DNA of 64,000 nucleotides from a virus (taxonomy: Duplodnaviria > Caudoviricetes), in IMG/VR virus record IMGVR_UViG_2862830631_000005, positions 1-64,000 of that record. The stretch is one strand, 5' to 3'. Shown piece by piece: positions 2,845 to 60,200 of the stretch. The notes beneath the pieces are model-generated. The model saw only the letters and a list, made by a program, of their open reading frames with translations, ran no database searches and had not been told where the DNA came from. Position numbers and translations under genes: made by a program. The number at the start of each line of letters is the position of its first letter. Position 1 is the stretch's first letter.

Positions 2845-3061
2845 GCATGGAGGGGGTTGCACGGCTGTGGGTATGACCTGCATCCGCGCATCCCCTGCTG
2901 TCAGCTCAGGCAGCACACACGCGGGAAGGGACGAACATGAACGTAGACATTCGGGAACCGAAGTCCACCACAGCACCTACACACGGAGAAGAGCCCATCG
3001 GCCTGCATGGTCGGTGAGCTCTTTGCTGTCGGTAGGCAGCGCACACGGGAAGGGGTTAACC

Positions 3062-3184
3062 ATGGAACATGACGAGGATCCGGAAACTTACGAAGTTACT
3101 CCGGAGATCATGGCAGCCATAGACGTTCTGGCGAACACTCAGAGGTGGTCCGTCAAGGATAACGTGACGGGCGATTGGTACTGA
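3062..3184 (+). CDS. small hypothetical protein
   Basis: ATG after GGGAAGGGG RBS. Confidence 0.5.
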   Translation: MEHDEDPETYEVTPEIMAAIDVLANTQRWSVKDNVTGDWY

Positions 3185-3242
3185 TCAGATCGGTGCCATG
3201 CAACCGACGAAAAAGGTCAAACACACTGGAAGGGAACGGCAA

Positions 3243-3416
3243 ATGGACATTCCTCATGACATACCACAACAAATCGAGATAGTGAAGCTGGCCAAAGCTG
3301 GCGACGACGCGGCGATCGAAGCGATCAACGCACTCCCCGATGGGTCTTGGATGCGTAACGCGCTCGCTGACCCGGGATGGCCAGAGTCACCACGCAGGTA
3401 CCCAACCTACGCGTGA
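3243..3416 (+). CDS. small hypothetical protein
   Basis: ATG after GGAAGGGA RBS. Confidence 0.55.
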   Translation: MDIPHDIPQQIEIVKLAKAGDDAAIEAINALPDGSWMRNALADPGWPESPRRYPTYA

Positions 3417-3639
3417 TGACGAAATGCACTGGTGAGTAGGCAGGGGACACAGCGGGGGTAACTCGTTGTGTGCCTGGTGTGCTCACACCTAGGGTGAGAG
3501 TCGACTTATGGGCGCCAAGTGGCTTGCAGTGACTCACTGTGCGCGGCAACCCCTTCCCCCGCTTGCGGCGGTGGGTTATTCGCCACCTGGCACCTTTATG
3601 TCGACTCTGACTCTGTTAATAGTGGGAAGGGGTCAGGGA

Positions 3640-3921
3640 ATGTTTATCAGGAATTTCGCACGTCACGGCGGCCACGAGTTTGTCCGCTCGGGTAAACGGT
3701 GGCCGTACGCCATAATCATGACCATAAAAGACTCGAGTACGGGCGAGCTGGGCGCAACAGTGCAGTGGGCTAGCACACTCGAACGTGCAGAGAGGCAGTA
3801 CAACGCCGACATGTCACGATGGACCCGGGTTCGCAACGGTGAGTCATTGCGCGGCTTGTACTCGACGGCCTTCTATCAGAGCGTGACCGACATTGTGATT
3901 GTCGGAACAACTACTGAGTAG
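3640..3921 (+). CDS. hypothetical protein
   Basis: ATG after GGGAAGGGG RBS. Confidence 0.55.
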   Translation: MFIRNFARHGGHEFVRSGKRWPYAIIMTIKDSSTGELGATVQWASTLERAERQYNADMSRWTRVRNGESLRGLYSTAFYQSVTDIVIVGTTTE

Positions 3922-3999
3922 GCAGGGTGCACAGCAGTTCTTCGGACCTGTTGTGCGCCTGGTGGATTCACGACCATCAACACTAGGAAAGGGAGAACA

Positions 4000-4683
4000 T
4001 TGGACAAGAAACAGAAGGTGACCGACAAGGTTGCCAAACTGCTACGCCAAGCCGAGGACGTGGCCGGGACACCCGAAGAGTCGGTGTTCCAAGCCAAAGC
4101 GTTCGAACTGCTGGCGAAGTACGGGTTGGACATGGCGCAGGTGGACGCCAAGCGCGCGAACCTAGACATCTCCGATATGCCTGACGCGATCCAGTGGGCC
4201 GCAAACCTCACCGGCACATACCAGTCCGCGCAACTGCTGCTGCTGAACGGAATCGCAAGAGCTCTGCACTGCCGGTGCGTCTGCACCCGCACTAACAGTT
4301 CGTACGTGGTGAACGTCTTCGGGATGGAACGGCACATCGAGCGTGTGAAGTTCCTGTGGGGCATCCTGCAGCCGCAGATGATGCGACAGGTCAAGTTGGC
4401 ACACCCCGGATACTACGGTGGCGGTGTCAAGTCCTATCGGCGGGCATGGATTGCCGGGTTCGCCAACACGATCGGTCAACGCGTGCGGGAACAGGAAGAC
4501 AAGGCTGTGACCGCGGCCGGTGCCCTCGTGCTCTACAAGGGGGACTCGCAGCGCGCCGAGGCTGCACTTCAGAAGGCATTCCCTGAGGCTCGCGACAAGC
4601 GGCAGTCGAACTACAACCGCAGTGGTTGGGAGGCCGGCGCCGCCGCTGGACGGAGCGCGCAATTCAATCGGGCTATCGCTTAA
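4000..4683 (+). CDS. DUF2786-domain protein
   Basis: N-terminal KVAKLLRQAE...PEE...AKAFELLAKYG helical motif typical of DUF2786. Confidence 0.75.
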   Translation: MDKKQKVTDKVAKLLRQAEDVAGTPEESVFQAKAFELLAKYGLDMAQVDAKRANLDISDMPDAIQWAANLTGTYQSAQLLLLNGIARALHCRCVCTRTNSSYVVNVFGMERHIERVKFLWGILQPQMMRQVKLAHPGYYGGGVKSYRRAWIAGFANTIGQRVREQEDKAVTAAGALVLYKGDSQRAEAALQKAFPEARDKRQSNYNRSGWEAGAAAGRSAQFNRAIA

Positions 4684-5559: not shown

Positions 5560-5852
5560 ACACGAAGCGCAGGTGTAAGCCGGAGACCGATGACCGCATA
5601 TACGAGTTCCACATTCCTGGGCGTACGACCCTTATCCCAGGGACCGAGGTATCCATTCAGGGCAAGCGTGGTCGGTACCGATTCCGCTACGCACGCAAGA
5701 CATCCCAGGGCAAGGATGAACTCACCTTCGTTGGCGGGCGGCTCGACGGCCAGGGGGAGAAGTTTGTGTCCGTCTACCCCGAGCGGGTGGCGCGGGTGCA
5801 CCGAACCGGCAAGACGTTAGTGAGCATCACGAAAGAGAAGTCCGGCAAATGA
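5556..5852 (+). CDS. hypothetical basic protein
   Basis: ATGA overlap with upstream stop. Confidence 0.6.
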   Translation: MNTKRRCKPETDDRIYEFHIPGRTTLIPGTEVSIQGKRGRYRFRYARKTSQGKDELTFVGGRLDGQGEKFVSVYPERVARVHRTGKTLVSITKEKSGK

Positions 5853-5853
5853 G

Positions 5854-6000
5854 ACTTGCCAGGGGAGGACAATGAACGGACCCCGCAACCCGCGGTCAAA
5901 CGAGAACCACCTCCCCGGCACCAAACTTCCGATAGGCGGGACAGACCATGCCCCCCGCACACTTCGCGGTCGACACTACCGCCCTCGCCTACCGGAACAA
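5854..6000 (+). ncRNA. stem-loop dual-spacer guide array 1 (2 units), TIGR-like
   Basis: Units 5854-5924 and 5925-6000: ACTT, outer stem, ACA-N9-CC, inner hairpin, TC(A/G)-N9-C(A/C), outer stem, A(C/A)CAA. Confidence 0.8.
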
Positions 6001-6026
6001 CCACGAAAACAGAAGGGATCAAACAA

Positions 6027-6491
6027 ATGTCACTGTCCACACTGATCAATCAGGTAATCGAAGAGCACCCCCTGTCGAACCCGTGGGATGTGGCCGAGAT
6101 GGTCGCGAAGCTCACCCCCGACGATGACGCCCGCGCGTTCTACGTCGAAGCACTGGTGCCCAGTGTGCGAATCGCGCTGGCCAACAAGCGAAACGCGGCG
6201 ATCAGTGCGACGCGGCGAACACAGTCCGGATCGCGGCGTCCACAGTCGAGCAAGGTCGACCGGGTGCGTGACGCATGGCAGGCGGCACTTAACGCCCTGG
6301 TGGCTGTCGGTAGCAATGAGTGGAAGCCGCTACGGGAGTGCACCGCCGAAGATCTGCGGGTTGTTATCGATGGGCGGATGCGCCATATCGAGTCGGTGCG
6401 CAGTCAGGTGTCGTATTACGAACGCTTGGTTGATGCGCTGATGGATCAGGATGTGTCGACGGTGGGTGAGCTGTCGGGCCCGGTTTCATGA
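6027..6491 (+). CDS. hypothetical helical protein between the two guide arrays (candidate partner)
   Basis: ATG 6027 after AGAAGGG RBS; its stop overlaps the start of array 2. Confidence 0.7.
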   Translation: MSLSTLINQVIEEHPLSNPWDVAEMVAKLTPDDDARAFYVEALVPSVRIALANKRNAAISATRRTQSGSRRPQSSKVDRVRDAWQAALNALVAVGSNEWKPLRECTAEDLRVVIDGRMRHIESVRSQVSYYERLVDALMDQDVSTVGELSGPVS

Positions 6492-6492
6492 G

Positions 6493-6722
6493 ACTTGCCG
6501 AGCTGGGACAATCACCAACCACCGCAGTTTGCAGCTGCGGCCATGTGGCGCGCACCCGGCTCGGCACCAAACTTGCACACAGCGGGCCAGCACCACAGCC
6601 TCGCCATTGCGCGAACAATGTGACGGCACCCGCTGTGTGCACCAACTTGCCAAGAGTGATGACAGAAGACCTCCACCGCAATTATGCGGTCAACTGGGCT
6701 TGCCCATCACTCTTGGCGTCAA
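6493..6722 (+). ncRNA. stem-loop dual-spacer guide array 2 (3 units), TIGR-like
   Basis: Units 6493-6570, 6571-6644, 6645-6722 with the same architecture; stems differ in sequence but all pair. Confidence 0.8.
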
Positions 6723-6748
6723 CTCACGAAACTGGAAGGGAACCAACA

Positions 6749-7471
6749 ATGTCCGCACTACTCGCAGACCCGACACTCGCCCTCGCCGCAGAAGTGGTGG
6801 ACGACCTCGAACGGGTACGCATCGCCAACGAGAACCGACTCCGCTCACTCACCGACCCTGAAATCTACGGGCTCACCATCCAACACCCAGACGTGCTCGC
6901 ACTCACCGGACTGGTGGAACAACTCAAGGATTCCGAGAAACAAGCCACCAAACACCTAGAGAAGGTGATGGCCCGACACCCACTCGGCACATGGGTGAAA
7001 GGTGCTACGGGAGTGGGTTATAAGCAGGCTGCCAGACTCCTCGCGGCACTGGGCGACCCATACTGGAATGACCTGTATGACAGGCCGCGAACATTCGATG
7101 AACTGTGCGCATTCAGCGGGCTTTCCATCAAGTCCGGCAAAGCGGTGCACAGATCTCGTGGGGTGCAGAGTAATTGGAACCCAGACGCCAGGATGCGGTT
7201 GTGGCTGGTCGCGCAGTCGTGCATCAAAACCAAGGGCGAGTATCGACAGGTGTACGACGCGGGCCGGGAGCGATACGCGGACGCTGTCCACGTTGTGGAA
7301 TGCCAACGGTGTGGTCCGAAAGGTAAACCTGCGCAGCCCGGTTCGCCGCTGTCGGCGGGGCATCAGCACGCCCGTGCGACGCGTCTGATCGTCAAAGCGG
7401 TGCTGAAAGATCTTTGGCAGGCAAGCCGTGCATGCCATGCAACCGCACAACCACAAAAGGAAGGTAAGTAG
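6749..7471 (+). CDS. IS110 Tnp/Nop-fold RNA-binding protein lacking RuvC (TasA-like)
   Basis: Coiled coil followed by GVGYKQAARLLAALGD..FDELCAFSGL..NWNPDARMRLWLVAQS, resembling the IS110 Transposase_20 domain; no N-terminal DEDD domain; GGAAGGG RBS. Confidence 0.75.
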   Translation: MSALLADPTLALAAEVVDDLERVRIANENRLRSLTDPEIYGLTIQHPDVLALTGLVEQLKDSEKQATKHLEKVMARHPLGTWVKGATGVGYKQAARLLAALGDPYWNDLYDRPRTFDELCAFSGLSIKSGKAVHRSRGVQSNWNPDARMRLWLVAQSCIKTKGEYRQVYDAGRERYADAVHVVECQRCGPKGKPAQPGSPLSAGHQHARATRLIVKAVLKDLWQASRACHATAQPQKEGK

Positions 7472-7474
7472 CTC

Positions 7475-7795
7475 GTGGCTCAGTCCCTCATCACCCACAC
7501 CGGGGTCAGCGTGTCCATGCTCAAGGAACGCATCGCCGACCTCACGCACGAACTCGAGGTCGCGCAGGAGGAATACGAGAACGCGCAACCAGTCGAGCCG
7601 CAGTCCATCGGGAGCGTCATCCGGTTCACCAACTGGAACGGCTACCTGTACGCCGCGATCAAGCTCGACAAGGGCTGGTACGTCACACAGGACGGCTCGC
7701 GTTCCGCGCGACAGGGCATCAAGCCGATGACGTGGGAGAAGCTGCTGGAGTGGGTCGGTGTCCGCAACTGGGAAGACATGGAGGTTCTGTCGTGA
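7475..7795 (+). CDS. hypothetical protein
   Basis: ORF with AAGGAAGG RBS. Confidence 0.7.
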   Translation: MAQSLITHTGVSVSMLKERIADLTHELEVAQEEYENAQPVEPQSIGSVIRFTNWNGYLYAAIKLDKGWYVTQDGSRSARQGIKPMTWEKLLEWVGVRNWEDMEVLS

Positions 7796-13558: not shown

Positions 13559-14761
13559 TCAGGTCCCCTTCACGTTGAGCACCTGGCGCAGCGTGGTGAT
13601 CACGTCGACCAGGGGTTCCGCATCGGCCATCACCTGGTCGATGTCCTTGTAGCAGCTGGGGATTTCGTCCACCAGCTTCTCTGCGATGTCCGACCGCCAC
13701 TCGATGCCCTGCATCTGGTCAGCGAGATCCTGTGCGGTGAAGAGCTTCTTGGCCTGGCTGCGCGAATGCCGTCGACCCGCCCCATGTGGTGCCGAGTACA
13801 GGCCAGGTGCGTACCCCTTGCCGCGCACCACGTACGACCGGCTGCCCATGGATCCGGGGATGACACCCGGCTTGCCCTCGGTCGCGTCGATAGCGCCCTT
13901 GCGAGTCAGCCACACGTACTTGTCACCGTGCAGCACGCGGGTCGTGTAGTTGTGGTGGCAGTTGATGCGCTCCAGCTCGACGCGCTGAGGCTGCACGCCC
14001 AGCCACCATGCGAACACCTGCACGAAGCGATCCATCATCTCGGCGCGGTTGAGATAGGCAAAACGCTGCGCCCACCCCAGATCCTTGATGTACCGGTTGA
14101 ATCCGTGCGTATCCTCCATGAGCCACGCCAGATCTCGGTGGGGCAGCTTCTCCCCAATCTGGTCGCAGAACACCTGTGCGGCCTTGATGTGGCGCTGGGC
14201 GATCTTGTTGCCCACACCACGAGAACCGCTGTGCAGGAACAGCCACACATTGTCCTCGGCGTCCACGCACAGCTCGATGAAGTGGTTGCCGCCGCCGAGT
14301 GATCCAAGCTGCTCCATCCACTTCGGCGAATGCGACAGGTCCACATCCAGGTCTTGCTGGAGCTGGGTCAACTCCTCGTGACGCTTCCGCGTGAATGAGA
14401 ACCTCGACAACGTCGAGTTGTAGTTGCCGGGGGAGAGCGGAATGGCCTCTTCGAGCTGTCGGCGCAACGACCCCAGGTCGCGACTCATCCCAGCACCGAA
14501 CAGCCGGTCGCCCGTGAAGCGCGTCTTGACTGCGATCATCCCGCAGCCGATGTCCACACCCACCGCGGCCGGCATCACCGCACCAACCGTGGGGATCACC
14601 GTGCCCACCGCAGAGCCCTTACCCGAATGGGCATCAGGCATCAACGCAATGTGCGGGTAGACGAACGGCATCGAGGCGATCTCGTTGGCCTGTTCGATGG
14701 TGGCCTGATCGATCTCACTCGCGAATGAAACAACCTTCGAGTTCAGCAGTGTGTAGCTCAC
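13559..14761 (-). CDS. rtcB: RtcB-family RNA ligase
   Basis: MPDAH, VGVDIGCG, LGSLGGGNHF, LHSGSRG, HHN, RKGA, PHGAGR motifs. Confidence 0.97.
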   Translation of the reverse strand: MSYTLLNSKVVSFASEIDQATIEQANEIASMPFVYPHIALMPDAHSGKGSAVGTVIPTVGAVMPAAVGVDIGCGMIAVKTRFTGDRLFGAGMSRDLGSLRRQLEEAIPLSPGNYNSTLSRFSFTRKRHEELTQLQQDLDVDLSHSPKWMEQLGSLGGGNHFIELCVDAEDNVWLFLHSGSRGVGNKIAQRHIKAAQVFCDQIGEKLPHRDLAWLMEDTHGFNRYIKDLGWAQRFAYLNRAEMMDRFVQVFAWWLGVQPQRVELERINCHHNYTTRVLHGDKYVWLTRKGAIDATEGKPGVIPGSMGSRSYVVRGKGYAPGLYSAPHGAGRRHSRSQAKKLFTAQDLADQMQGIEWRSDIAEKLVDEIPSCYKDIDQVMADAEPLVDVITTLRQVLNVKGT

Positions 14762-14964
14762 TTGCCCAGCACCTCCAGGGCCTTCTTCAGCTCCTTGCGC
14801 AGCTGCTTGATCTCCCCCACGGTGAGACGGGTGGCCGCCCACCTCGCGTGGTCGGTATCCATCTGCACCAGGATGTCCGCCTCCCGCGTGCCGATGGCGT
14901 CGATGTTGACCTCGCCGCCGCTCTTGGTCTTCATGCGGGTGGAAAACTTCTTGGTATTGATCAC
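14758..14964 (-). CDS. hypothetical protein
   Basis: Coupled ORF. Confidence 0.6.
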   Translation of the reverse strand: MINTKKFSTRMKTKSGGEVNIDAIGTREADILVQMDTDHARWAATRLTVGEIKQLRKELKKALEVLGK

Positions 14965-15179
14965 GATTCGAGCAGCTCCTTGATGATGTCGCCAATGAAG
15001 TGGTACGTCTTCGTGTGAATGGCCTTCTGGGATGTCTTAGCGCTCTGGTAGATCACGTCCACCTCGAAGTACACCGAGTCCGTGCCCTCTTCGCAGTAGC
15101 CGTTGAATGCAACATCGAAGATTGACCCGTAGCGCTCCCCAACCTCGGATAGAAGCCTGCACCCCAGGCGCTTCGACAT
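14961..15179 (-). CDS. hypothetical protein
   Basis: Coupled ORF; start uncertain. Confidence 0.5.
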   Translation of the reverse strand: MSKRLGCRLLSEVGERYGSIFDVAFNGYCEEGTDSVYFEVDVIYQSAKTSQKAIHTKTYHFIGDIIKELLES

Positions 15180-15369: not shown

Positions 15370-15375
15370 CTGTTG

Positions 15376-15446
15376 CAGTTCGTAGGGGACTCGAACCCCT
15401 ACCTACAGATTGAGAATCTGGGATGCTGCCTTTACACCAACGAACC
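15376..15446 (-). tRNA. tRNA-Glu(CTC)
   Basis: Cloverleaf, loop TT-CTC-AA, GGTTCGAGTCC T-arm. Confidence 0.9.
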
Positions 15447-15785
15447 ATTGCTGACGACCCACTGGCCGTCATCACGAACCTCCGTCTTAAGGTTCACCGG
15501 CCACATGTCGCGCTCAACTCGGGCCTTCAGAAGCGTCTCCTGGCCACACTGACGCTTCACCCATGTGCGGAACGTTGAGGTTTGCGCCATGCGCTTGAAC
15601 GCCAACCGCTTGTTCTGCAACTGACTGCGCTCATCGCGAGCCTCACCAACGGCGCCGGAAGCCCTGTGAGTGACTCGGACACCGGTTTCCCGCTTGTTCT
15701 GATTCTGCCCACCCTTGCCGCCGGCACGAAATGTGTCGACCTGGCAGTCATCAAGGGTGACCGAGAATGCTAGTTCCATACTCAC
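15432..15785 (-). CDS. GGQ peptidyl-tRNA hydrolase / ArfB(YaeJ)-like release factor
   Basis: FRAGGKGGQNQNK..V..H..ERSQLQNKRLA. Confidence 0.92.
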   Translation of the reverse strand: MSMELAFSVTLDDCQVDTFRAGGKGGQNQNKRETGVRVTHRASGAVGEARDERSQLQNKRLAFKRMAQTSTFRTWVKRQCGQETLLKARVERDMWPVNLKTEVRDDGQWVVSNGSLV

Positions 15786-15860
15786 GTCCCGACGACGGGA
15801 TTTGAACCCGTGTATCCACCTCGACAGGGTGGCGTCCTGGGCCGCTAGACGACACCGGGA
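15786..15860 (-). tRNA. tRNA-Asp(GTC)
   Basis: CCACC-CT-GTC-GA-GGTGG. Confidence 0.92.
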
Positions 15861-15936
15861 TTGTTGGACTTGACGCGTACCTCACGGGTCAACTTTCTGG
15901 GAATCAAACCCTGGAGCTGCTTGACCAAAACTCCCG

Positions 15937-16010
15937 CATTCCGAGCGGGATTCGAACCCGCACTCTCCTGAGTGAAAATCAGGTGGGATGACCAATTACC
16001 CTATCGGAAC
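15937..16010 (-). tRNA. tRNA-Glu(TTC)
   Basis: CCTGA-TT-TTC-AC-TCAGG. Confidence 0.92.
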
Positions 16011-16016
16011 ACAATG

Positions 16017-16084
16017 TGGAGTACCGGGGAATCGGACCCCGCCTCTGAGTTTGCAAAACTCGGAGTCTCACCAGACAGCACCCC
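16017..16084 (-). tRNA. tRNA-Ala(TGC), truncated D-arm
   Basis: G3:U70 pair, loop TT-TGC-AA, T-loop TCCGATT. Confidence 0.75.
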
Positions 16085-16085
16085 G

Positions 16086-16202
16086 TTAAGCCGCCTTCCG
16101 GCGATGTGGACGACCGTGCCCCTTGTTGCGTGCTCCGTATGTTGGAGTCAACGCATGATGATTGGGGCACAGCACTCGCAGATTCGCCCGCGAGTTGTTG
16201 GT
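16086..16202 (-). pseudogene. C-terminal remnant of an HNH homing endonuclease
   Basis: TNNSRANLRVLCPNHHALTPTYGARNKG...* with no N-terminal part. Confidence 0.65.
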
Positions 16203-16241
16203 GTAGGTCTCTTGACGGACCTATTGTGCAAAAAAGAGCTG

Positions 16242-16313
16242 AGCCCCTACGACGATTCGAACGCCGCACGCCGATTTACAAGATCGGAGCTTTTCCTACT
16301 AAGCTATAAGGGC
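16242..16313 (-). tRNA. tRNA-Thr(TGT)
   Basis: CCGAT-CT-TGT-AA-ATCGG. Confidence 0.92.
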
Positions 16314-16314
16314 C

Positions 16315-16385
16315 TGGTAGCCGGTCAAGGAATCAAACCCTGCTTAGTTGGATGTAAGCCAACCTTCGTCTCAGACTAACCAGCC
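16315..16385 (-). tRNA. tRNA-Val(TAC), truncated D-arm
   Basis: GTTGG-CT-TAC-AT-CCAAC; CCA encoded. Confidence 0.8.
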
Positions 16386-16386
16386 A

Positions 16387-16464
16387 TGGAGCATCCGCAC
16401 GGAATCGAACCGAAACTTTCAGGGTGGAAGCCTGACGTGCTAGACCGTTAAACACTACGGACGC
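16387..16464 (-). tRNA. tRNA-Gly(TCC)
   Basis: TCAGG-CT-TCC-AC-CCTGA; TCCA end. Confidence 0.92.
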
Positions 16465-16484
16465 ATAGGTATTCAATTATGTTG

Positions 16485-16551
16485 CGCGACAGGAGGGAGT
16501 CGAACCCCCATCCGACCGCTTAGGAGGCGGCTGGCCGTCCAGTGCTGCCGC
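16485..16551 (-). tRNA. tRNA-Arg(CCT), truncated D-arm
   Basis: GCCGC-CT-CCT-AA-GCGGT; GGTTCGACTCC. Confidence 0.8.
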
Positions 16552-16705
16552 ATCGGACCTTGCTAATGATCTCCAAGTCCTCATACTCGCGGGACTCTTC
16601 GTAATCCCACTCGCGCCGCCACAGACGATCCTCAGCGGCCCGCTGACGCAACGCCAACATGTCACCGCCACAACACCCTCGGCAACACGTCCTACGTCGC
16701 AGCAT
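16520..16705 (-). CDS. small hypothetical protein overlapping tRNA-Arg
   Basis: GGAGGT RBS; stop falls in the tRNA anticodon loop. Confidence 0.4.
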   Translation of the reverse strand: MLRRRTCCRGCCGGDMLALRQRAAEDRLWRREWDYEESREYEDLEIISKVRCGSTGRPAAS

Positions 16706-16727
16706 GGATGACACAGCTACCTCCAAG

Positions 16728-16802
16728 TGGTAGGGACACCGGGTACTGACCCCAGGATGCCGTCTTATCAGAACGGAGTGATAACCATTTCACTATGTCC
16801 CA
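16728..16802 (-). tRNA. tRNA-Ile(GAT)
   Basis: CCGTT-CT-GAT-AA-GACGG; atypical T-loop; CCA. Confidence 0.85.
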
Positions 16803-16803
16803 G

Positions 16804-16877
16804 TAGGCCCAGAAGGAATTGAACCCTCGTCCCCGGATTAAGAGTCCGGTGCTATTCCCAACTTCAGCTATAGGCCC
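16804..16877 (-). tRNA. tRNA-Lys(CTT)
   Basis: CCGGA-CT-CTT-AA-TCCGG. Confidence 0.92.
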
Positions 16878-16981
16878 ATATCCGGCAGTAACGGGGCCGG
16901 GGCCGAGTAGTCTTCAGCCACCCGATGGCCTACTACTACCTCTTTCGTCGTCGCGCCGGGTCAGGGCGGTCGGGATTTGCG

Positions 16982-17055
16982 TACTCGACGCGAGAGTCGA
17001 ACTCGCAAGCACCTGAGTTTGAATCAGGCGGCTTTGCCGGTTTGCCTAGTCGAGC
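16982..17055 (-). tRNA. tRNA-Leu(CAA), short variable loop
   Basis: CCTGA-TT-CAA-AC-TCAGG. Confidence 0.9.
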
Positions 17056-17056
17056 A

Positions 17057-17530
17057 TTACGCCGCAGCTTTCCACGGCTTGTTTGTGTCGCACTGAGAAT
17101 GACAGTTGGGACAGAGAAACCTCAGGTTCTCGGCGCGGTTATCGAGAGGGTTGCCGTCTATATGATCAATCTCCAGAACGATTGGAAGCCCCATCCATGA
17201 ATCATCCAACCCGCATAGCTCACACACCGCTGGACGACCGATCTCGCTCAGTGCGCGGCGAAGGCGTTTGACATCTTCACGGTTACTACCCTCAGGGCGA
17301 ACCACAAGGATCTCAGTGGCCGCCTTTCGGCGGTTTGACGTCCCTCGACCGGCAGTCGTGTTTCGAAAGTGGCTTGTATCCAACCCCATGCGTACCACAC
17401 GATTACGCATATGGAAGTGGCTACCGCCCGCCACCTTGATACCTAGTCTGCGGAGCACGTCTGACATCGACGTGCAACTAGCGACCGCATCCGCCACCTG
17501 GGCGTCGGTATATGTTCTTTGTCTCCCCAT
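17057..17530 (-). CDS. HNH homing endonuclease between two tRNA-Leu genes
   Basis: CELCG..LEIDHIDGNPLDNRAENLRFLCPNCH. Confidence 0.92.
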   Translation of the reverse strand: MGRQRTYTDAQVADAVASCTSMSDVLRRLGIKVAGGSHFHMRNRVVRMGLDTSHFRNTTAGRGTSNRRKAATEILVVRPEGSNREDVKRLRRALSEIGRPAVCELCGLDDSWMGLPIVLEIDHIDGNPLDNRAENLRFLCPNCHSQCDTNKPWKAAA

Positions 17531-17534
17531 TGCG

Positions 17535-17607
17535 TACCGAGGGCGGGGGTCGAACCCGCATACACCTGATTCTAAGTCAGGCGGCTCGCCAGATGGCCTA
17601 CCTCGGC
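17535..17607 (-). tRNA. tRNA-Leu(TAG), short variable loop
   Basis: CCTGA-CT-TAG-AA-TCAGG. Confidence 0.9.
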
Positions 17608-17652
17608 ATATCGGGGAAGCCCCCGTAGTTCGGGATCCCCCCTGTGACCTAT

Positions 17653-17727
17653 TGGAACCGGGAGTCGGATCTGCACCGACGTAGGTCGGCTTTGCAGGCC
17701 GCCGCTTAACTACTCAGCCATCCCGGC
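17653..17727 (-). tRNA. tRNA-Cys(GCA)
   Basis: loop CT-GCA-AA; U73-CCA. Confidence 0.88.
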
Positions 17728-17982
17728 TTGTTCCCACCCCGGCCAATCATGGATGGTGGGAATGCGGCCCTGAGATCCATTCAGAGCCACGTTCACCTGC
17801 AGGGCGTAGGAAAGCCATGGACGAAGGTCATCCACGTCCTCTCCGTTGCCCTCAGCCTCATCTCTGGCAGCCTGCAGGATCTCTGCTATCTGCTGTCGAC
17901 GGGCCACGACGGCCGGATGGCTGTTGAACCATTCGATCGCCGGCTGGAGAAACTTGGGATCTTCCTTCAGCAAGCCAGCCAT
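17710..17982 (-). CDS. hypothetical protein whose stop lies in tRNA-Cys
   Basis: MAGLLKEDPKF...; AGGGGAA RBS. Confidence 0.6.
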   Translation of the reverse strand: MAGLLKEDPKFLQPAIEWFNSHPAVVARRQQIAEILQAARDEAEGNGEDVDDLRPWLSYALQVNVALNGSQGRIPTIHDWPGWEQAGMAE

Positions 17983-17995
17983 CGTTTCCCCTAAG

Positions 17996-18069
17996 TGGTC
18001 AGACCGGACGGGCACGATCCGTCCCCTGCACAGTCACAGTGTGCAATGCTTCCGCTACACCACGGCCTT
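17996..18069 (-). tRNA. tRNA-His(GTG)
   Basis: GCACA-CT-GTG-AC-TGTGC; atypical T-loop ATCGTGC; CCA. Confidence 0.85.
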
Positions 18070-18072
18070 GTG

Positions 18073-18145
18073 CGCCCCTGAAAGGATTCGAACCTCCACA
18101 GGCATGGCTTCGTAGGCCATCGCTCTTCCGTTGAGCTACAGAGGC
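18073..18145 (-). tRNA. tRNA-Arg(ACG)
   Basis: ATGGC-CT-ACG-AA-GCCAT. Confidence 0.92.
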
Positions 18146-18181
18146 AGTTGAGCTTTAACCATCTGCTTTATTAGATTGCAG

Positions 18182-18529
18182 TTAGCGCAAAGGGTTTGAT
18201 ACCCTTCCGGCCAACCGCGATTCCTTAGCTGCTGGCCGCTCCTGGCTAGCAGGAGCAAGCAAGCACAACGCTCGATGCAACCAAGTAGCAGCCGCTAAGA
18301 GCCCGCCATCCGGGTCGTCCACCGCATAACACGGCAGATCACCAAACTTCTCACGGTACATCTCGATAGCAGTGGCATGCCCGCCCTCATAAGACCAACC
18401 GATGAACGCGCACGCACGCTCAGCCTCAGCCGTAGAAGGCAAGGGCCCCCAGAAGTCAGGCACGGCGCTGCCACCCATCCATTTCCATCTGACTGCGATG
18501 CGAACGGTGGTCGTCATCGTCATAACCAA
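18182..18529 (-). CDS. hypothetical protein
   Basis: ORF only. Confidence 0.4.
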   Translation of the reverse strand: MVMTMTTTVRIAVRWKWMGGSAVPDFWGPLPSTAEAERACAFIGWSYEGGHATAIEMYREKFGDLPCYAVDDPDGGLLAAATWLHRALCLLAPASQERPAAKESRLAGRVSNPLR

Positions 18530-18728
18530 CCGAAACGCAAATCAGGTACCAACCCGGCTTAACCCAAAGCTCAAGGTTCTCGCCGTGAACATTTAACCCA
18601 CTATCCTCGGCGACATACAGCAGGGCGTCAATCGACCGCTTAACAGCGTCGGGCGTCATAGCGCTATGACAGGCGTGATAAAAGAAATGCTTCTCAGGCA
18701 CACTCGGCATGAAACAACTCCCCCGCAT
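18456..18728 (-). CDS. hypothetical protein
   Basis: ORF only. Confidence 0.4.
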   Translation of the reverse strand: MRGSCFMPSVPEKHFFYHACHSAMTPDAVKRSIDALLYVAEDSGLNVHGENLELWVKPGWYLICVSVGYDDDDHRSHRSQMEMDGWQRRA

Positions 18729-18757
18729 ACTCGGCGACCATCTTCTTTGATTCCATC

Positions 18758-18831
18758 TGGTTGCGCAGCTGGGATTCGAACCCAGAGCCTCGGCTTATGA
18801 GACCGAGATGTTCCCCTTACACTACCGCGCA
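18758..18831 (-). tRNA. tRNA-Met(CAT)
   Basis: TCGGT-CT-CAT-AA-GCCGA; CCA. Confidence 0.92.
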
Positions 18832-18887
18832 ATATCCGGATTGGTTCGCCTCTCACCGGCATCGAGGAGTGGTTTCCACTTCATACG

Positions 18888-18962
18888 TCGGAACGCTTGG
18901 ATTCGAACCAAGGGCCTCCCGGGTTTCAACCGGGCGCTCTCACCTCACTGAGCTACGATCCG
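18888..18962 (-). tRNA. tRNA-Phe(GAA)
   Basis: CCCGG-TT-GAA-AC-CCGGG. Confidence 0.92.
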
Positions 18963-19040
18963 AGGAGTCCCACCCATTCATGCCAGCCCCTCTGGCAACC
19001 TGTATTCACTCTTAGTGGCCACCAGGCGGGTGGGGGTAAG

Positions 19041-19126
19041 CGGAGGGCTGTGGGCACGATCCACACGGGTTGTCTACCGCGCACCCCTTAGCAGGGGGCC
19101 CCAGCTCCCTGGCTGGTTAGCTCTCC
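19041..19126 (-). tRNA. tRNA-Ser(GCT)
   Basis: GCCCC-CT-GCT-AA-GGGGT; long variable arm. Confidence 0.85.
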
Positions 19127-19260
19127 AAAGTTCCCGGTCGCTCTGCCAGTTGAGACGTATACCCCTGACGCACCAACAGTCCTTCGCGCGAACTAGGTGT
19201 TGGCTCCCACCGTGCACGGCAGGCGACGAGGGCAGGTGGATTCGAACCACCAACCACCAG
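19127..19260 (-). ncRNA. circularly permuted tRNA mimic (YrlA/Y-RNA-like)
   Basis: Order 5' CTGGT, T-arm GGTGG TTCGAAT CCACC, acceptor 3' strand, insert, acceptor 5' strand, D-arm, ACCGG 3'. Confidence 0.7.
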
Positions 19261-19263
19261 TTG

Positions 19264-19352
19264 CGAAGAGCGGAGGTCTTGATCCCCAAGCAGCATCACC
19301 TGCTACCCGGTATTCGACACCGGTCGGGGCACTCGCCCCTGCTTCACTCTCC
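19264..19352 (-). tRNA. tRNA-Ser(CGA)
   Basis: CCGGT-GT-CGA-AT-ACCGG; long variable arm. Confidence 0.8.
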
Positions 19353-19409
19353 AGATGCCGGTCGAGTTGCTTTTACCCTGCGCCTCCCCGGCTTGTGGCG
19401 CAGCATGTG

Positions 19410-19483
19410 TGGAGTCACCGAGGCTTGAACTCGGCTCTGCTGGACTGCGAATCCGGCGTTTTACCTTGTTAAACTACAACCCC
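19410..19483 (-). tRNA. tRNA-Ala(CGC)
   Basis: G3:U70; loop TT-CGC-AG. Confidence 0.88.
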
Positions 19484-19710
19484 ATTGTGCGGTTTCGGGT
19501 GTCGCGATTCACCCTACCGAGAGGTCCGCTATCTCGGATCCGTGGTTGGATAACACAGCCAGCGGCATCGGACTGCGACCCCGTAAATTAACGTCACCAG
19601 GGATCAGGGCGGGTAGTTATCCGATCTACCAACGGCTAGTTCGGTCCGGCCCAGTTTTAACCCGCTCGGGCCGGGGGTGGGAAGCAGTTTGAATTGATGC
19701 TCAACAATCG

Positions 19711-19782
19711 CTGGAAACCCTGGATTCGAACCAAGAATGACGGGTTCAGATCCCGTAGTGTTGCCGGTTACACCAGTCTCCA
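19711..19782 (-). tRNA. tRNA-Gln(CTG)
   Basis: ACGGG-AT-CTG-AA-CCCGT. Confidence 0.92.
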
Positions 19783-20064
19783 ATGCTGGAAAGGCATTTC
19801 GGTCGGCCCACCTCTCCACTGGCCGGTGGGCAGTCGATTCGGGGTCGAGCCCCTCCCTCGTCTGTGTTCCCCACTAGGACTGGCCTTGCGAGCAGGGGCC
19901 CTCATGTTGGTGTCGCAAGCCACGAACGGGTGCCCCGTCAGTCCCAAGATTGGAGACGCTTAGTTCAGTAGGCCCAGCGTCACTGCCTACACGATCCCAG
20001 GCTGGGGACGGTCCTACTTTCCCTCACCGTGCCCACGGGTGGGAGTGGTACCTCTCGTGTGTTG

Positions 20065-20141
20065 TCTCGCCGTGAGGAGTCGAACCTCCACACCCGAAGG
20101 AAGGGCTTTACAGGCCCCGTTGCTCACCTATGCGCGACGAG
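20065..20141 (-). tRNA. tRNA-Tyr(GTA)
   Basis: GGGGC-CT-GTA-AA-GCCCT; variable arm; reduced D-arm. Confidence 0.85.
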
Positions 20142-20434
20142 ATTGGAGGTGCGGCCTACAGACAAATACCGCACTACCACGCCATTTCACCGGATTATCG
20201 TTTCCCGGCTTGTCCCCCAGATCCCTCCAGGAGGCGCGTACGCCTGGTCCTTGTGAACCACTGTTCATGTCGAAAGCTACTCTGCGGCGTTCCCTTCGCC
20301 GTTGGGATGGCCGTCCCATGGCTGCAGTACTGACCTACAAACAGGATCCGCCTTGCGGGCTCGTCCTGCCCCGATTCTGCTCCACAGTCGGGGATTAAGG
20401 CGCTTTAACTCTTCGACAGGGAAAGTCTTTTGCT

Positions 20435-20510
20435 TGGATAACATCACAGGAATTGAACCTGCGACCTTCTGTTCTCAATACAGATGCTCTACCAATTGAG
20501 CTAGATGTTG
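20435..20510 (-). tRNA. atypical tRNA, anticodon TGA (nominally Ser) with a class-I body
   Basis: TCTGT-AT-TGA-GA-ACAGA; 5-nt variable loop; C1:A72; U73-CCA. Confidence 0.8.
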
Positions 20511-20912
20511 TGACCGGAGACGTGCTTCCCCATGAAGGTCCGTAACCTTTTGAGCTACAGAATGCTTCACGCCTCTCGCGCTTCAGGCTGGCGACCTGTT
20601 TCGCGCTCTCCCTCAACCGCATGCGAGCCGTCGCCCGTCGCGAGATCGGTCATGGAACCCGCCTTCGCCTGCCAGGGCTCTGACTCAGTTCCTTCCGCAC
20701 CCACACCAGCCTTAGTCGATAACACTTTCGGGCCTACGTTAGGTCATGGTGTCCTCAGCACGTTGCCGTTGGACCATGTGTACCTCGGTGGCGCACCGCC
20801 CCTTCGAGGACGGTGTCGGGTTGTGGATTGCATGGATTGCCCTCACGGGTGGCGAGCTGTCACACTCACCTTTCAGTGCCTTACGGCACCTTATCGGCCA
20901 TGCCCGAAATCT
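20511..20912 (-). ncRNA. large structured ncRNA (GOLLD-like candidate)
   Basis: No credible minus-strand CDS; many GNRA-capped hairpins (GTGCC-GTAA-GGCAC, CCC-GTGA-GGG, ACG-GCAA-CGT) and long-range TTTCGGGC/GCCCGAAA pairing. Confidence 0.55.
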
Positions 20913-21017
20913 TGATGGGGCCTGGATTCTAACCAGGATCTCCAGGGAATGCCACGTCCGGACGTGGGGCCTGGGCTCTACCGGGGATCAAGCCGGCTGA
21001 TCTTGAGCTACACCCTC
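20913..21017 (-). ncRNA. tRNA-like element with hairpin insertions in D-loop and anticodon arm
   Basis: TAGCTCAA[GATCA..TGATC]CCCGGTAGAGC, CCAGG[CCACGTC-CG-GACGTGG]CCTGG, CCTGG-TTAGAAT-CCAGG. Confidence 0.6.
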
Positions 21018-21018
21018 G

Positions 21019-21091
21019 CTGGTCCGCCAGGATTCGAACCTGGAACTTCCTGGTTAACAGCCAAGCGTGTTGCCGGTTACACCACGAACCA
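21019..21091 (-). tRNA. tRNA-Asn(GTT)
   Basis: CTTGG-CT-GTT-AA-CCAGG. Confidence 0.92.
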
Positions 21092-21247
21092 ATGATTGCC
21101 GCCAAACCAGGTGGGGGGAGCTTTTGACCGCACGATGGCGGGGTGGCTGTTATGTCACCCGGTTTGGTAAGTCTTTCCCACCAGTGTGACGACAGGTGGG
21201 CGTGCCGGTCCTAAACGGACACACTCAGTTGACACTTTTTCATTGCG

Positions 21248-21319
21248 TCGGGAAGCACAGACTCGAACTGCGTACGCCCGCATCCGAAGCGGCCATGTTT
21301 ACCTTTACACCACATCCCG
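21248..21319 (-). tRNA. tRNA-Pro(CGG)
   Basis: loop TT-CGG-AT; CGGGATG acceptor. Confidence 0.88.
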
Positions 21320-21393
21320 ATTGGAAGCATGGCGGATGGAGTGGGCTCTGTACCATCTCTTACCTATGGCCATTCCCGACCATGCTTCACGAG

Positions 21394-21831
21394 TGGAGCT
21401 GGCGGGAGTCGAACCCGCGTCTTACGTTCTTCGTACTCAGTCTTCTACGTGCGTAGTCCAGACAGGTGTAATCCCAGCCAGCTACTGGACATACGGCTGC
21501 GGATTTGCTTCGGATTTACCCCCGAGTGGGCTGCAATTTTAGCCTACGGGTGCGCGGGCGCTACGGTCTGCCAACCATTCCTGCGGTCCCCGTATTAGCG
21601 ACGCTGGATTGGTAGACGGAACGGGTAAACCGCTCTACCCCAACGGACTTCAGCTAGGCTGCGACGAGAAACTCAGCCTCGATGTCCTCAACGGAGAAAT
21701 CGAGCTCAGCTTCCCAGGCAGCGAAGTCAGCATCAGTATCGACTGCGCTTAATTTGTTTTGCACTGTTACGGGCGTTGCATCCCGGCACGCTTCCCTGGA
21801 CTCTGTTCGCAATCGAAACCAGAACAGCCCC
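21394..21831 (-). ncRNA. ssrA: tmRNA
   Basis: 5' GGGGCTG..GGTTTCGA, 3' GGGTTCGACTCCCGCCAGCTCCA; tag ORF 21746-21654 ending LVAA*. Confidence 0.95.
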
Positions 21832-21876
21832 ATGAAACTTACTTGATATCCACTATTTAGTTCTCAAAGTACTGAG

Positions 21877-21947
21877 CAGGGTCGGAGGGATTCGAACCCC
21901 CATAAGCGGCTTTGGAGACCACGGTCCTGCCGTTGGACGACAACCCT
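21877..21947 (-). tRNA. tRNA-Trp(CCA)
   Basis: GTGGT-CT-CCA-AA-GCCGC. Confidence 0.92.
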
Positions 21948-57239: not shown

Positions 57240-60200
57240 TTAAACGCCGTACTTGCCGATGTAAGGCATCGCTTCCTGCGCAGCGGTTGTGCGCTGCTGA
57301 CGCTTGAACTCGTCAAGGTTCGTCAGCTGATAGACGTTGTCGCCGTTGTGAACACGGCCCTGAACCATCGAAGGAACGCCCGAGGTATCTGGCTGGGCCG
57401 GCAGTAGGGGAGTGCCAGATGCACTTGCAGTTGATCCGTTCGTCGCAGTTCCCACGAGCAGCGACGACAAGACGTTCGTCAAGCCAGTTGCGATCTGGCC
57501 GCCGATCTGGAATCCGGCCTGAATGCCAGCCCCGGCGAGCTGCCCACCAGCGCCACCAGCGAGTCCGCCTGCGCCGGCAGTCGCGCCCATCGAGGCTCCA
57601 GACGCGGCCATCGATGCAGCGGTAGCCACGAGAGACCCGACATGGTTCCACGCACCCTGAATGCCTGAACTCAACGCAGGGAGGTTGTGCTCCTGCGATG
57701 AAGGTGCAGCACCAAGGCTTGCCCGAGGGTCAGCCGACTGCGACGCATCAGCGCCAGGCTGTGCCGAACCAACGCCGCCGGTTCCCGAGAGCAGCCCAGC
57801 CAGGCCACCGACGTTCGTCAGTGCGTCCTGCACGCCAGGGAGAGCACCAGGGTCTGGAGCGGGAGCAGTCGCCCCAGGCCCCGGTGCACCTCCGGTCGAA
57901 GGGGTGGTGCCAGCACCAGCCCCAAGTGTGAGAGGCCCGGGAGTAGCGGGCTGCGGAACGCCTGGCTGCTGGCCTGGCTCAGGTGGAGCGGGAGGCTGCG
58001 GCGTCTGCGGGAGCGGACCTGGAGTCTGCCCCGGGTAAGGCTGCGGCATCCACCAGCCGCCACCCTCGAACTGGCCGGCGTTCACCAGATGCATGAAGTC
58101 CAGGCCGTACTTCTTCACGGCGTAGTCGCGCATCATGAACTCGCCCTTGGACCCCATCAGTGGGACAGAGTCCGAGCGCCCAGTGCCAGGCCCGGTGATC
58201 AGTCCACCGCCGGCCTTACCTGGAATAGGTAGCCCAAGCTGTGGCGGATTCCACTGCGCGAAGACCCGGGCACCCCTACCCTCTGGTCGCACATCGAAAG
58301 GCGTGTAGCTGCCACCGCGTGGAAGTAGGAGCTCATTCTCTGCTCGCCCGAAGTGCGAGAGAGACTCGCGTCCAGCACGTCCAGACAGCCACAACCCGTG
58401 GGAGCCGCGCGGTACAAGCAGCTGCATTACATACGGCGAAGGACGCCCACCAGCGCCGACACTGGTTGATGTGTATCCGGGATCGGAGAATGTGCGGCCG
58501 AGCAACCTGGTCAGGTCGTCATTGGGGTGGATGTTCCCGAAGCCGGCTGCGTCGAGCTCGCGGTTGACAACGAAGTCGTCCGGTACGCGGTTTGCCTTCC
58601 CGAACGCGCTGTCAATCCCGGCTACCTGCCGCAGATGCTCTGATAGCGCGTCACTGCCGACCAGGTGACCCTTGCCGCTGGCAAGCGCTCGGAGCGTGCC
58701 GTTGACACCAGACCCCTTTGTGTACCCGTAGATGGCGTCGAGCTCGGCCGGAGTGAACGGGTTGTCCGACTTGCTGTACGGCCAGATATCGTTCGCGTAC
58801 GCCCGCGCCCTGCCGAGATCCATCGCATCCGGGGCGGTGTGCGCGTGCGCAGGGGTGGCACCCTTCAGGAATCCGCGACGTGCAGCACTGCTCGCCACCG
58901 AGCCTGCACGTGTTCCCTTCAGTGCCGCGCCACCAGGAACGAACGCCGACGCGATGTCAAACGCGGACATACCGGCCGCGCGAGCAGGGTTACGACCCCA
59001 CTCATCCCAGTGGACGGTGTTCTTACCGAACTGCCTCCACGCATCCCCAACAGATGGGGAACCGCCTCCACCGAGCCCAACAAGTGGTGCTAGACCGCGT
59101 GCAGCGCCACCGACCGCCATGGCTGGGTTGCCGACAGCCTGGTAGATCCCCTTACCTGCATCCCAAGCCGAGGACCCGACGCCGCCGAGGAAGTCTCCGA
59201 CCTTTCCGAAGAACCCTCCACCCGAGAAGCGTGGTAGCCGGCGAGCGTTCAGATCATCGAACAGCTGCTTGCCGTAGTAGCGGGTGGCATCCCTATTGGT
59301 GACGAACTCACCACGCGACAGCCACGCCAAACCACTATTCGGATGACCACCGCTCTTGAACCCGTGCCCCTGGCCGATCTGGTTTGGAACGCCAGTGTTC
59401 GGGTCCTGCCCGTACTGCGACTTCGTGTAGGCAATCGCCGCGACGATCTGAGACCACGGGTCATTGATCGATCCGCCGACAGCGTTGTAGGAGTCAAACG
59501 TCGATGGCAGGAAGTTGAACAGACCCATGACCTGCTGGGTTCCGCCCTGTCCGTCGGAGTCATTCCCGTTGAACGAGAACGGATCACCGCCAGACTCAGT
59601 ATCGATCTGCTTGACGAGAGCGTTCTCCCACGCGGCAGCGTTGGTGATTCCAAGCTGAGGCCCGTACATCTGCAGCGCCTGACGGATCATGGCGCGATAA
59701 GCGTTTCCGCCCTTCTTGCCAGGTGAAGCGAGACCACCGCCCTGCTGAAGAAGGTTGTCGTTGAATGCGATCGGCTGGATAGGAAGACCAGTCGAAGGGT
59801 CAACCTCGATAGGCAGCTGCCCGTTGCCGTACAGGAACTGGTTCAGGTACTGCCCTGATCCACCGTCACCAACGACATTGCCGAGTCCGCCGATGCCCTG
59901 CTGGAGCAGCTGCGAGAAGACATCCCCACCGCCGCCACCTGAGGAACCGCCAAGGTTCAGCCACCCTGACGCTGCCTGGCCGGCGCCATTGCCCACCTGT
60001 CGGGTGAGATCAGCAAGCCAATTGAAGTTGATCCCAGTGAGGTCGGTGAGCAGCTGCGTGCCGATCCCGAGCAGGCTGGAACCGATATTCCCAGCCTGGC
60101 CAACCAGGAACTGGGCGATGTTCGAAGGCTGCATAAAGTCGGGCAGCCCAGCGATATTCCCGAAGAGGCCGCCGCTGGAATCTCCAGTCAGCATGTCAGC

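Follow-up and report, generated by a model that had tools for sequence, protein, structure and literature searches.

The phage protein P154 (154 aa) and TasA, a Nop-domain TIGR-associated protein without a nuclease domain, are encoded by genes that show near-obligate, co-diverging linkage. In the stretch of phage DNA analyzed here (64,000 nt, hereafter the window), the P154 gene (6027..6491, + strand) lies between two sub-arrays of stem-loop TIGR guide units, and the second of these is followed by tasA (6749..7471, + strand; 240 aa). We propose that the P154 family is a dedicated upstream partner of the ~240-aa stem-loop TasA clade, acting as a non-enzymatic, nucleic-acid- or RNP-binding subunit of the TasA-tigRNA complex, a reading whose chances we judge to be about even. 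An earlier note, made from the letters of the window, had described a helical protein of 154 aa flanked on both sides by guide arrays and accompanied by a TasA-like guide-binding protein lacking a nuclease domain; the open reading frame, the arrays (two units upstream and three downstream, each folding better than its shuffles), and the identity of the neighbor are all confirmed below.

TIGR-Tas systems are presented, in the accessible parts of the literature, as single-protein RNA-guided machines. A near-obligate P154 is a concrete candidate for two questions, namely how stem-loop guides mature and what the natural role of nuclease-free TasA is, and among the phages of the clade are many cultivated ones of Mycobacterium smegmatis and Gordonia, in which gene deletion and pull-down are routine. 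For engineering, a TasA of 240 aa is very small, and a need for P154 may decide whether it could be used as a stand-alone protein. The sources cited below (Faure et al., Science 2025, PMC12045711; bioRxiv 10.64898/2026.09.09.750476; bioRxiv 10.64898/2026.08.11.744272) were accessible in part, and statements on them refer to those parts.

Linkage of P154 and TasA across phages and hosts

The TasA profile retrieved 79 loci from IMG/VR, one of which lacked upstream DNA and was left out. A P154 match lay upstream of tasA and on the same strand in 76 of the remaining 78, and two TasA loci of this clade, L046 and L088, had no P154 upstream. Dereplication at 90% TasA identity left 61 loci with both genes, separated by a median gap of 332 nt (range 11-999). 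Among contigs of GTDB genomes, P154 was encoded directly upstream of TasA in 25 of 25 loci, with hosts labeled Mycobacterium, Streptomyces, Kitasatospora, Gordonia, Nocardia, Tsukamurella, Microbacterium, and others; Rhodococcus is also among the hosts spanned by the pairs, which belong to phages and prophages of Actinomycetota. Six of the seven TasA loci of isolate phages carried P154. In Bethlehem (P154 gp72, TasA gp71), Omega (gp22, gp21), and Peregrin (gp186, gp187) the two genes are separated by gaps of 336, 255, and 441 nt, respectively. In prophiFSAT01-1 gp26 lies between P154 (gp25) and TasA (gp27). TasA forms the C-terminal part of the gene product encoded directly after P154 in BENtherdunthat (gp58 followed by gp59) and in Rich (gp51 followed by gp50). 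The Peregrin homolog aligns end to end with the window P154 at 23% identity. The locus of a Microcystis phage with a distant TasA (26% identity) is without P154. Searches of the phage collection with tblastn found P154 in 86 records and TasA in 91. Co-occurrence with TasA-like genes across phages, which the earlier note had proposed as a check on its idea, was thus found in the viral, bacterial, and isolate sets.

The linkage was also seen from the other side, with a degenerate DNA pattern for the WKxLGDCT motif of P154 as the query. All 12 P154 genes found in metagenome contigs had TasA downstream; in viral DNA 4 of 20 matching stretches were real P154 genes, and 3 of these were followed by TasA, so that the P154-first searches gave 15 of 16 in total. 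The exception, L101, is a record of 29.9 kb that is 39% complete and has no TasA match anywhere in it; its P154 homolog (7229-7780, - strand; 183 aa) ends about 130 nt from a convergent 514-aa open reading frame. Homologs occurring independently of the arrays or the Tas-like gene, which the earlier note had named as evidence against its idea, are represented among the P154-first loci by this one fragment.

The neighbors of the pair behave differently. DUF7246, PHROG 1342, and three more neighbors of P154 and TasA in the window recur in 0-1 of the 61 dereplicated loci, as compared to 61 of 61 for TasA, and the annotated genes flanking the pair differ among the isolate phages as well. Moreover, where the gap between P154 and TasA is only 11-48 nt, as in loci L034 and L076, the stem-loop units sit elsewhere, so the adjacency of the two genes is independent of the array. 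Retention of order and adjacency down to ~25% identity, in loci whose other neighbors turn over, argues for a functional dependence between the two proteins. Pairwise identities of P154 and TasA are correlated across loci (Mantel r = 0.52, a value reached by 0 of 2000 permutations), which for adjacent genes shows co-inheritance, not binding. In all 1830 locus pairs P154 had diverged further than TasA (mean identity 26% vs 52%); it evolves about twice as fast.

In the contig L113, from a Mycobacterium MAG, a 433-aa open reading frame (1292-2593) lies between the P154 homolog and tasA, leaving a gap of 1475 nt; its motifs look like those of a cytosine-5 DNA methyltransferase, making it a candidate for such an enzyme. 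A similarly long gap is present in L114.

The locus, its guide arrays, and TasA

The window has a GC content of ~0.60 and lies on a 111-kb contig within a 6.23-Mb bacterial assembly; the phage collection contained no near-identical DNA. Its gene content includes a tape measure gene, minor tail genes, an endolysin gene, a serine integrase gene, an RtcB ligase gene, and 21 tRNA genes. The contig carries tail, lysis, integrase, and tRNA genes; rather than a short prophage, it may represent the entire genome of a large temperate phage of about the size of Omega.

The genes of the locus are all on the + strand. A DUF7246 gene directly precedes the upstream sub-array (5849..6026; recognized from repeats D1, D2, and D5, the unit parse, and folds), the start of which overlaps its stop codon. 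The P154 gene begins at ATG 6027 behind a GAAGGGA Shine-Dalgarno-like run, located in the leader that follows the two upstream units, and ends with TGA at 6489-6491, overlapping the downstream sub-array (6488..6748; inverted repeats I5, I6, and I12, the unit parse, and folds), after which tasA begins. ATGA stop/start overlaps at 5849 and 6488, together with the lack of promoter- or terminator-like sites on the + strand between 4600 and 8264, fit co-transcription, and the sequence is consistent with P154, the arrays, and tasA forming one operon or transcript. As the mobile unit we propose P154, array, and tasA in this order, with or without a further array in front.

Five tandem stem-loop units of ~72-78 nt were recognized, two upstream (about 5854-5925 and 5925-5996) and three downstream (6493-6570, 6571-6645, and 6645-6720). 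Each folds better than its dinucleotide shuffles, with z-scores of -3.28 and -2.80 for the upstream and -4.24, -5.28, and -5.75 for the downstream units and 0-2 of 200 shuffles as good; folds of single units were used, and RNAalifold on a MAFFT alignment of the five misaligned the 3' arms. Every unit starts with ACTT followed by a terminal stem of 11-13 bp, the sequence of which varies from unit to unit as its arms remain complementary (I5 and I6 are perfect 13-bp arms, I12 is 12 bp). We parse the remainder as a box-C-like triplet, a 9-nt spacer A, an inner hairpin, a second box-C-like triplet, and a 9-nt spacer B before the closing arm; the triplets that precede the spacers are ACA, CCA, TCA, or TCG, and the box assignments are our own, modeled on published descriptions. 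Stem-loop TIGR arrays have been described as having variable palindromic stems, two short spacers, and box C/D anchors (PMC12045711), with a conserved CUU at the stem's base and, in some cases, a hairpin separating the spacers (bioRxiv 10.64898/2026.09.09.750476), and all five units of the window share the variable palindromic stems, two spacers, box-like triplets, and CUU at the stem base. A K-turn is not apparent in any of the five units, and Rfam had no family for them, the sub-threshold matches being mir-571 (25.8 bits, gathering threshold 40) and isrG (13.7 bits, threshold 100).

Both sub-arrays open with the same 12-nt sequence, ATGAGACTTGCC, at 5849-5860, where it overlaps the DUF7246 stop codon, and at 6488-6499, where ATGAGACTTGCC overlaps that of P154. 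The leaders before the next start codon (6002-6026 and 6725-6749) are 80% identical, with repeats D1 and D5 covering the shared ends. Array and leader look as if they had been duplicated around P154.

Intergenic stretches of the isolate phages fold into tandem stem-loops of the same kind. Across loci, stem units were counted with a detector that is noisy (background ~3.5-3.9 units per kb) and of whose output only the CTT-led subset discriminates. The density of CTT-led units was 2.93 per kb in the gap between P154 and TasA vs 0.13-0.34 per kb in coding sequences and distant flanks (~10-20 times), with mild enrichment on the outer sides of the pair (0.57 per kb upstream of P154, 0.79 per kb downstream of TasA). 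By these densities, P154 between two arrays is a minority layout, and P154 adjoining tasA is the constant feature. In Omega (2983-4511 of locus L002), the P154 homolog, array, and tasA are on the strand opposite to the neighboring head-tail and glycosyltransferase genes, with stem-loop units both upstream of the P154 homolog and between the two genes, and the whole looks like an inserted cassette.

To search for targets of the five guides, spacer A was joined to the reverse complement of spacer B, allowing a gap of 0-2 between them, a geometry inferred from the description of cleavage in PMC12045711. The 6.23-Mb assembly contained no site with at most one mismatch, and its two-mismatch sites (4, 4, and 2) were no more numerous than those found with control geometries; no site with at most two mismatches was present in the window or in 151 actinophage loci (0.99 Mb). 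Since close matches are lacking in all three, the guides do not appear to be directed at their own phage or host.

TasA was assigned by several profiles. It matches NCBIfam NF052498 (TIGR_Tas_endo, in full 'TIGR-Tas system RNA-guided endonuclease') with 219.6 bits against a cut-off of 100, over all profile positions (1-215 of 215) and residues 10-227; Pfam PF02371 with 26.5 bits against a cut-off of 21.3; and PHROG 4285 with an E-value of 4.5e-97. The TasA family profile also recognizes the solved TasR (chain 9mty_A; E 1.2e-23) as well as TasH (E 1.3e-10). No further Pfam family was found at E<=1, no HNH or RuvC nuclease domain was detected, and a Tas profile covering residues 10-227 of 240 leaves no room for one. 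Judged by these matches, the open reading frame at 6749-7471 is a true TasA, nuclease-free and with a Nop-type RNA-binding domain. In public records, the TasA neighbors of PHROG 4604 genes, the family to which P154 belongs, are annotated as 'transposase', 'DNA binding protein', or 'hypothetical'.

The tasA frame is also open backwards through the downstream array to ATG 6488, which forms the ATGA overlap with the P154 stop, giving an open reading frame of 327 aa (6488-7471), and for many relatives of the window TasA in databases the called length is 340-420 aa. The short form of 240 aa is suggested by the Shine-Dalgarno-like run in front of ATG 6749, and tasA may also be translated through the array as the 327-aa form.

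The P154 family and its predicted structure

The match of P154 to PHROG 4604 (E 4.2e-42) is full-length, with residues 1-154 aligning to profile positions 1-159 of 159. This family has no assigned function, and its members include Bethlehem gp72 and Omega gp22; P154 is 30-42% identical to phage proteins of this kind. An exhaustive phmmer search yielded 377 cluster representatives at E<=1e-3, nearly all of 150-180 aa, and none of 400 other genomes of the host's order encoded a match at E<=1e-5. We found no fusions of P154 with TasA and no other longer forms, in a search that was weak for such cases. A predicted protein of 3945 aa, P0006, aligns with residues 72-140 of P154 at 13 separate places along its length; the Pfam matches of P0006 are scattered and of the low-complexity type, and it may be a translated tandem repeat.

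The AlphaFold2 model of P154, built from an alignment of 136 sequences, has a pLDDT of 93.5 and a pTM of 0.72 and consists of five helices and one beta-hairpin: three helices, the third of 33 residues, are followed by a basic, poorly conserved loop, a fourth helix, the hairpin, and a terminal helix of 34 residues. Folded separately, the C-terminal half gave the same helix, beta-hairpin, and long helix with a pLDDT of 95.6. The conserved positions are R55, S74, K76, R81, W84, W99, K100, D/E104, C105, T106, D109, and R117, most of them basic, aromatic, or hydroxyl residues in a protein that is otherwise near-neutral (family median pI 6.2). Across the family C105 is replaced solely by hydrophobic residues, so it looks buried. 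No catalytic triad of His, Asp, or Glu is conserved in the family, which has a single conserved Asp among Arg, Lys, Ser, Thr, and Trp. Conservation of this kind points to a surface that binds a ligand, probably nucleic acid, rather than to an active site.

Family and fold searches returned no match for P154 beyond its own relatives. In Pfam nothing rose above sub-threshold noise; among the 136 members scanned, six families were matched by any member at E<=0.01, none of them ParB, and the most frequent, Opi1, was matched by two members. NCBIfam and PADLOC gave nothing, the P154 profile produced one row against PDB sequences (E 0.96), and the ESM Atlas gave no usable feature match, its structure rows all having a TM below 0.4. 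Foldseek returned no PDB row at E<=1e-3 for either the whole model or the C-terminal half. The best VIA match of the whole model was to F-BAR helices (Z 6.1, rmsd 3.5, 68 residues), and the matches were generic helical ones; for the C-terminal half the best Z was 4.5, with single helices throughout. In BFVD the fold matches were family members alone, from phage Omega, from Rich, and from two further viral proteins. VIA rows for 9mty_B, the coiled coil of TasR (Z 5.8, rmsd 2.4 over 52 aligned residues), and for an IS110 chain (9t56_A; Z 5.2) were within generic helical-hairpin noise and were set aside, and an origin of P154 as a duplicated TasA coiled coil was rejected on an hhalign probability of 0.1%.

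The earlier note had proposed P154 as an effector or a partner. Of these, the partner is favored by the near-constant adjacency, order, and strand of the two genes among varying neighbors, and the effector has lost ground, as P154 shows no enzyme signature. By analogy with the effectors recruited by nuclease-free CRISPR types, P154 might be brought to the target by TasA-tigRNA and act there on DNA, RNA polymerase, replication, or a host factor. A TasA without a nuclease domain, the tight linkage of the two genes, and the roughly twofold faster evolution of P154, as expected of a component facing a changing target, would all fit this picture; however, neither an enzymatic signature nor an enzymatic fold was found in Pfam, NCBIfam, PADLOC, PDB sequences, Foldseek, or VIA, which argues against a catalytic effector, and catalysis is unlikely for a helical protein of 154 aa whose Cys is buried and in which neither an acidic nor a His cluster is conserved. 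TasA proteins of other clades, furthermore, bind guides and repress transcription alone (bioRxiv 10.64898/2026.09.09.750476). We regard the effector as unlikely.

Comparably unlikely, in our judgment, is that P154 regulates the module, either as a small dimeric DNA-binding protein (winged-helix-like with a coiled coil) governing transcription of the array/tasA operon or as a brake holding TasA inactive until it is required. The C-terminal half, in which a helix and a beta-hairpin that both carry conserved basic residues precede a long helix, has a secondary-structure order compatible with a winged-helix protein (HTH, wing hairpin, and dimerization helix); 10 of the 27 listed Foldseek rows for this half are HTH or winged-helix proteins of the MerR, MarR, CRP, RosR, and MqsA types (E>2, probability <=0.11), and P154 is the first gene of the unit. 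None of these fold matches is significant, however, and no HTH family of Pfam was matched among the 136 members scanned. Phage regulators, moreover, usually swap freely, whereas P154 stays with TasA down to 23% identity.

A proposed role for P154 in the TasA-tigRNA complex

Returning to P154 as a subunit of the TasA-tigRNA complex, we infer that the two proteins act together physically and that P154 binds nucleic acid, with a step of action that we envisage as follows. P154 would be a non-enzymatic, probably dimeric, subunit, the contact surface of which would be a basic and aromatic patch comprising R55, K76, and R81 with W84 on one helix and continuing through W99 and K100 on the beta-hairpin to R117 on the long helix. 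This patch would hold the long terminal stems of the guide precursor and their ACUU/CCAA linkers, or else DNA beside the target. As a result, guide maturation or loading would be aided, or the RNA-guided roadblock formed by TasA on foreign DNA would be stabilized. PlTasA, as solved, grips the long stem through hairpins at its periphery together with a basic patch (residues 314-321; bioRxiv 10.64898/2026.08.11.744272); these elements reach residue 321, whereas the window TasA has 240 residues and may lack them, which makes it plausible that the contacts are supplied in trans. What stands against the subunit reading, at the level of sequences and models, is that P154 has no homology or fold match to any RNA- or DNA-binding family. 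The P154 homolog of L101 without TasA, the P154-free TasA loci (L046, L088, and the Microcystis phage), and the lack of fusions in the weak search for them also count against it.

A more specific version of this role, to which we give a somewhat better chance than to the effector or the regulator and which is still rather improbable, is a system-encoded assembly and maturation factor, in which a new RNA-binding fold would grip the terminal stem and the ACUU/CCAA linker, set the site at which a host RNase cuts, and stay bound as the second subunit. If this is true, actinophage TIGR-TasA would be a two-protein RNP resembling box C/D snoRNPs, with P154 in the place of L7Ae. L7Ae and 15.5K, of box C/D snoRNPs and the U4 snRNP, are likewise small proteins that bind a structure flanking the guide RNA beside a Nop-domain protein; the likeness is a functional analogy alone. 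The L7Ae fold is an alpha-beta-alpha sandwich, whereas P154 is predicted to be helical with one hairpin and no L7Ae family is among its Pfam matches at E<=1. A comparison between Tas proteins and snoRNPs has been drawn before (PMC12045711).

Published work on stem-loop systems bears on guide maturation in several ways. Stem-loop Tas proteins are without the RNA-processing loop of dual-repeat Tas proteins, and the mechanism of maturation was called uncharacterized (bioRxiv 10.64898/2026.09.09.750476). In the same preprint, stem-loop arrays were processed in E. coli, which its authors credit to a host RNase; taken together with TasA proteins of other clades working alone, this means that P154 is not universally required. 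For the actinobacterial BlTasA, the addition of flanking genes sharpened processing; those genes lay downstream of tasA (bioRxiv 10.64898/2026.09.09.750476), whereas P154 is encoded upstream. The P154 loci resemble those of PlTasA, BlTasA, and MbTasA in having a nuclease-free, Nop-domain TasA and the same type of unit. They differ in that the latter are described, in the accessible texts, as one protein plus RNA, whereas the P154 loci add a second conserved gene to a TasA of 240 aa.

P154 might instead be a passenger, an independent gene (for example one for anti-defense or exclusion) that shares a mobile cassette with tasA, which we consider quite improbable. The homolog of L101 without TasA, the TasA loci L046 and L088 without P154, and the unrelated 433-aa open reading frame that separates the genes in L113 are what such a passenger would leave. 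However, the two genes keep the same order and strand and remain adjacent in 76 of 78 viral, 25 of 25 bacterial, and 12 of 12 metagenomic loci down to ~25% identity, and all other neighbors turn over; passengers are not usually so retained.

The closest published arrangement is that of TasParB, the ParB-like protein whose gene shares an operon with certain tasA genes (Faure et al., Science 2025, PMC12045711). As with P154, a small second gene accompanies a nuclease-free TasA, the guide arrays precede, follow, or separate the two genes, and the operon is conserved with varying flanks. That P154 is a diverged TasParB is nevertheless very improbable, since ParB families were matched neither by P154 at E<=1 nor by any of the 136 members scanned at E<=0.01, the listed Foldseek and VIA matches of the whole model or the C-terminal half include no ParB chain, and the published loci have dual-repeat arrays, whereas those of P154, in actinobacterial phages, have stem-loop arrays and encode a protein whose predicted fold has no known match. 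The ParB-like and anti-sigma folds suggested in the earlier note likewise drew no support from the family and structure searches.

Returning to P154 as the upstream partner of TasA, it is likely, from the sequence comparisons, an undescribed second protein of these TIGR-Tas systems. In its accessible part, PMC12045711 describes TasA as not clearly associated with other proteins, the exception being a ParB-like gene that is found occasionally, and the accessible part of bioRxiv 10.64898/2026.09.09.750476 makes no mention of ParB or of accessory or co-occurring neighbor genes. TasParB was the sole named Tas partner found in the accessible literature, and supplementary tables or TIGRSafari might list a P154 neighbor. 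The neighbor analysis of PMC12045711 clustered proteins at 50% identity, which would split a family with a mean pairwise identity of 26% into numerous small clusters, so the association may have been missed.

Two further features of the window concern other genes. The 21 tRNA genes (15375-21947, - strand) adjoin the gene for an RtcB-type tRNA ligase (13559-14995, - strand; PHROG 1075, E 6.9e-152). The tape measure protein (57240-63836, - strand; 2197 aa) matches PHROG 3895, annotated as an ADP-ribosyltransferase exoenzyme toxin, over part of its length (residues 1659-1844; E 2e-20).
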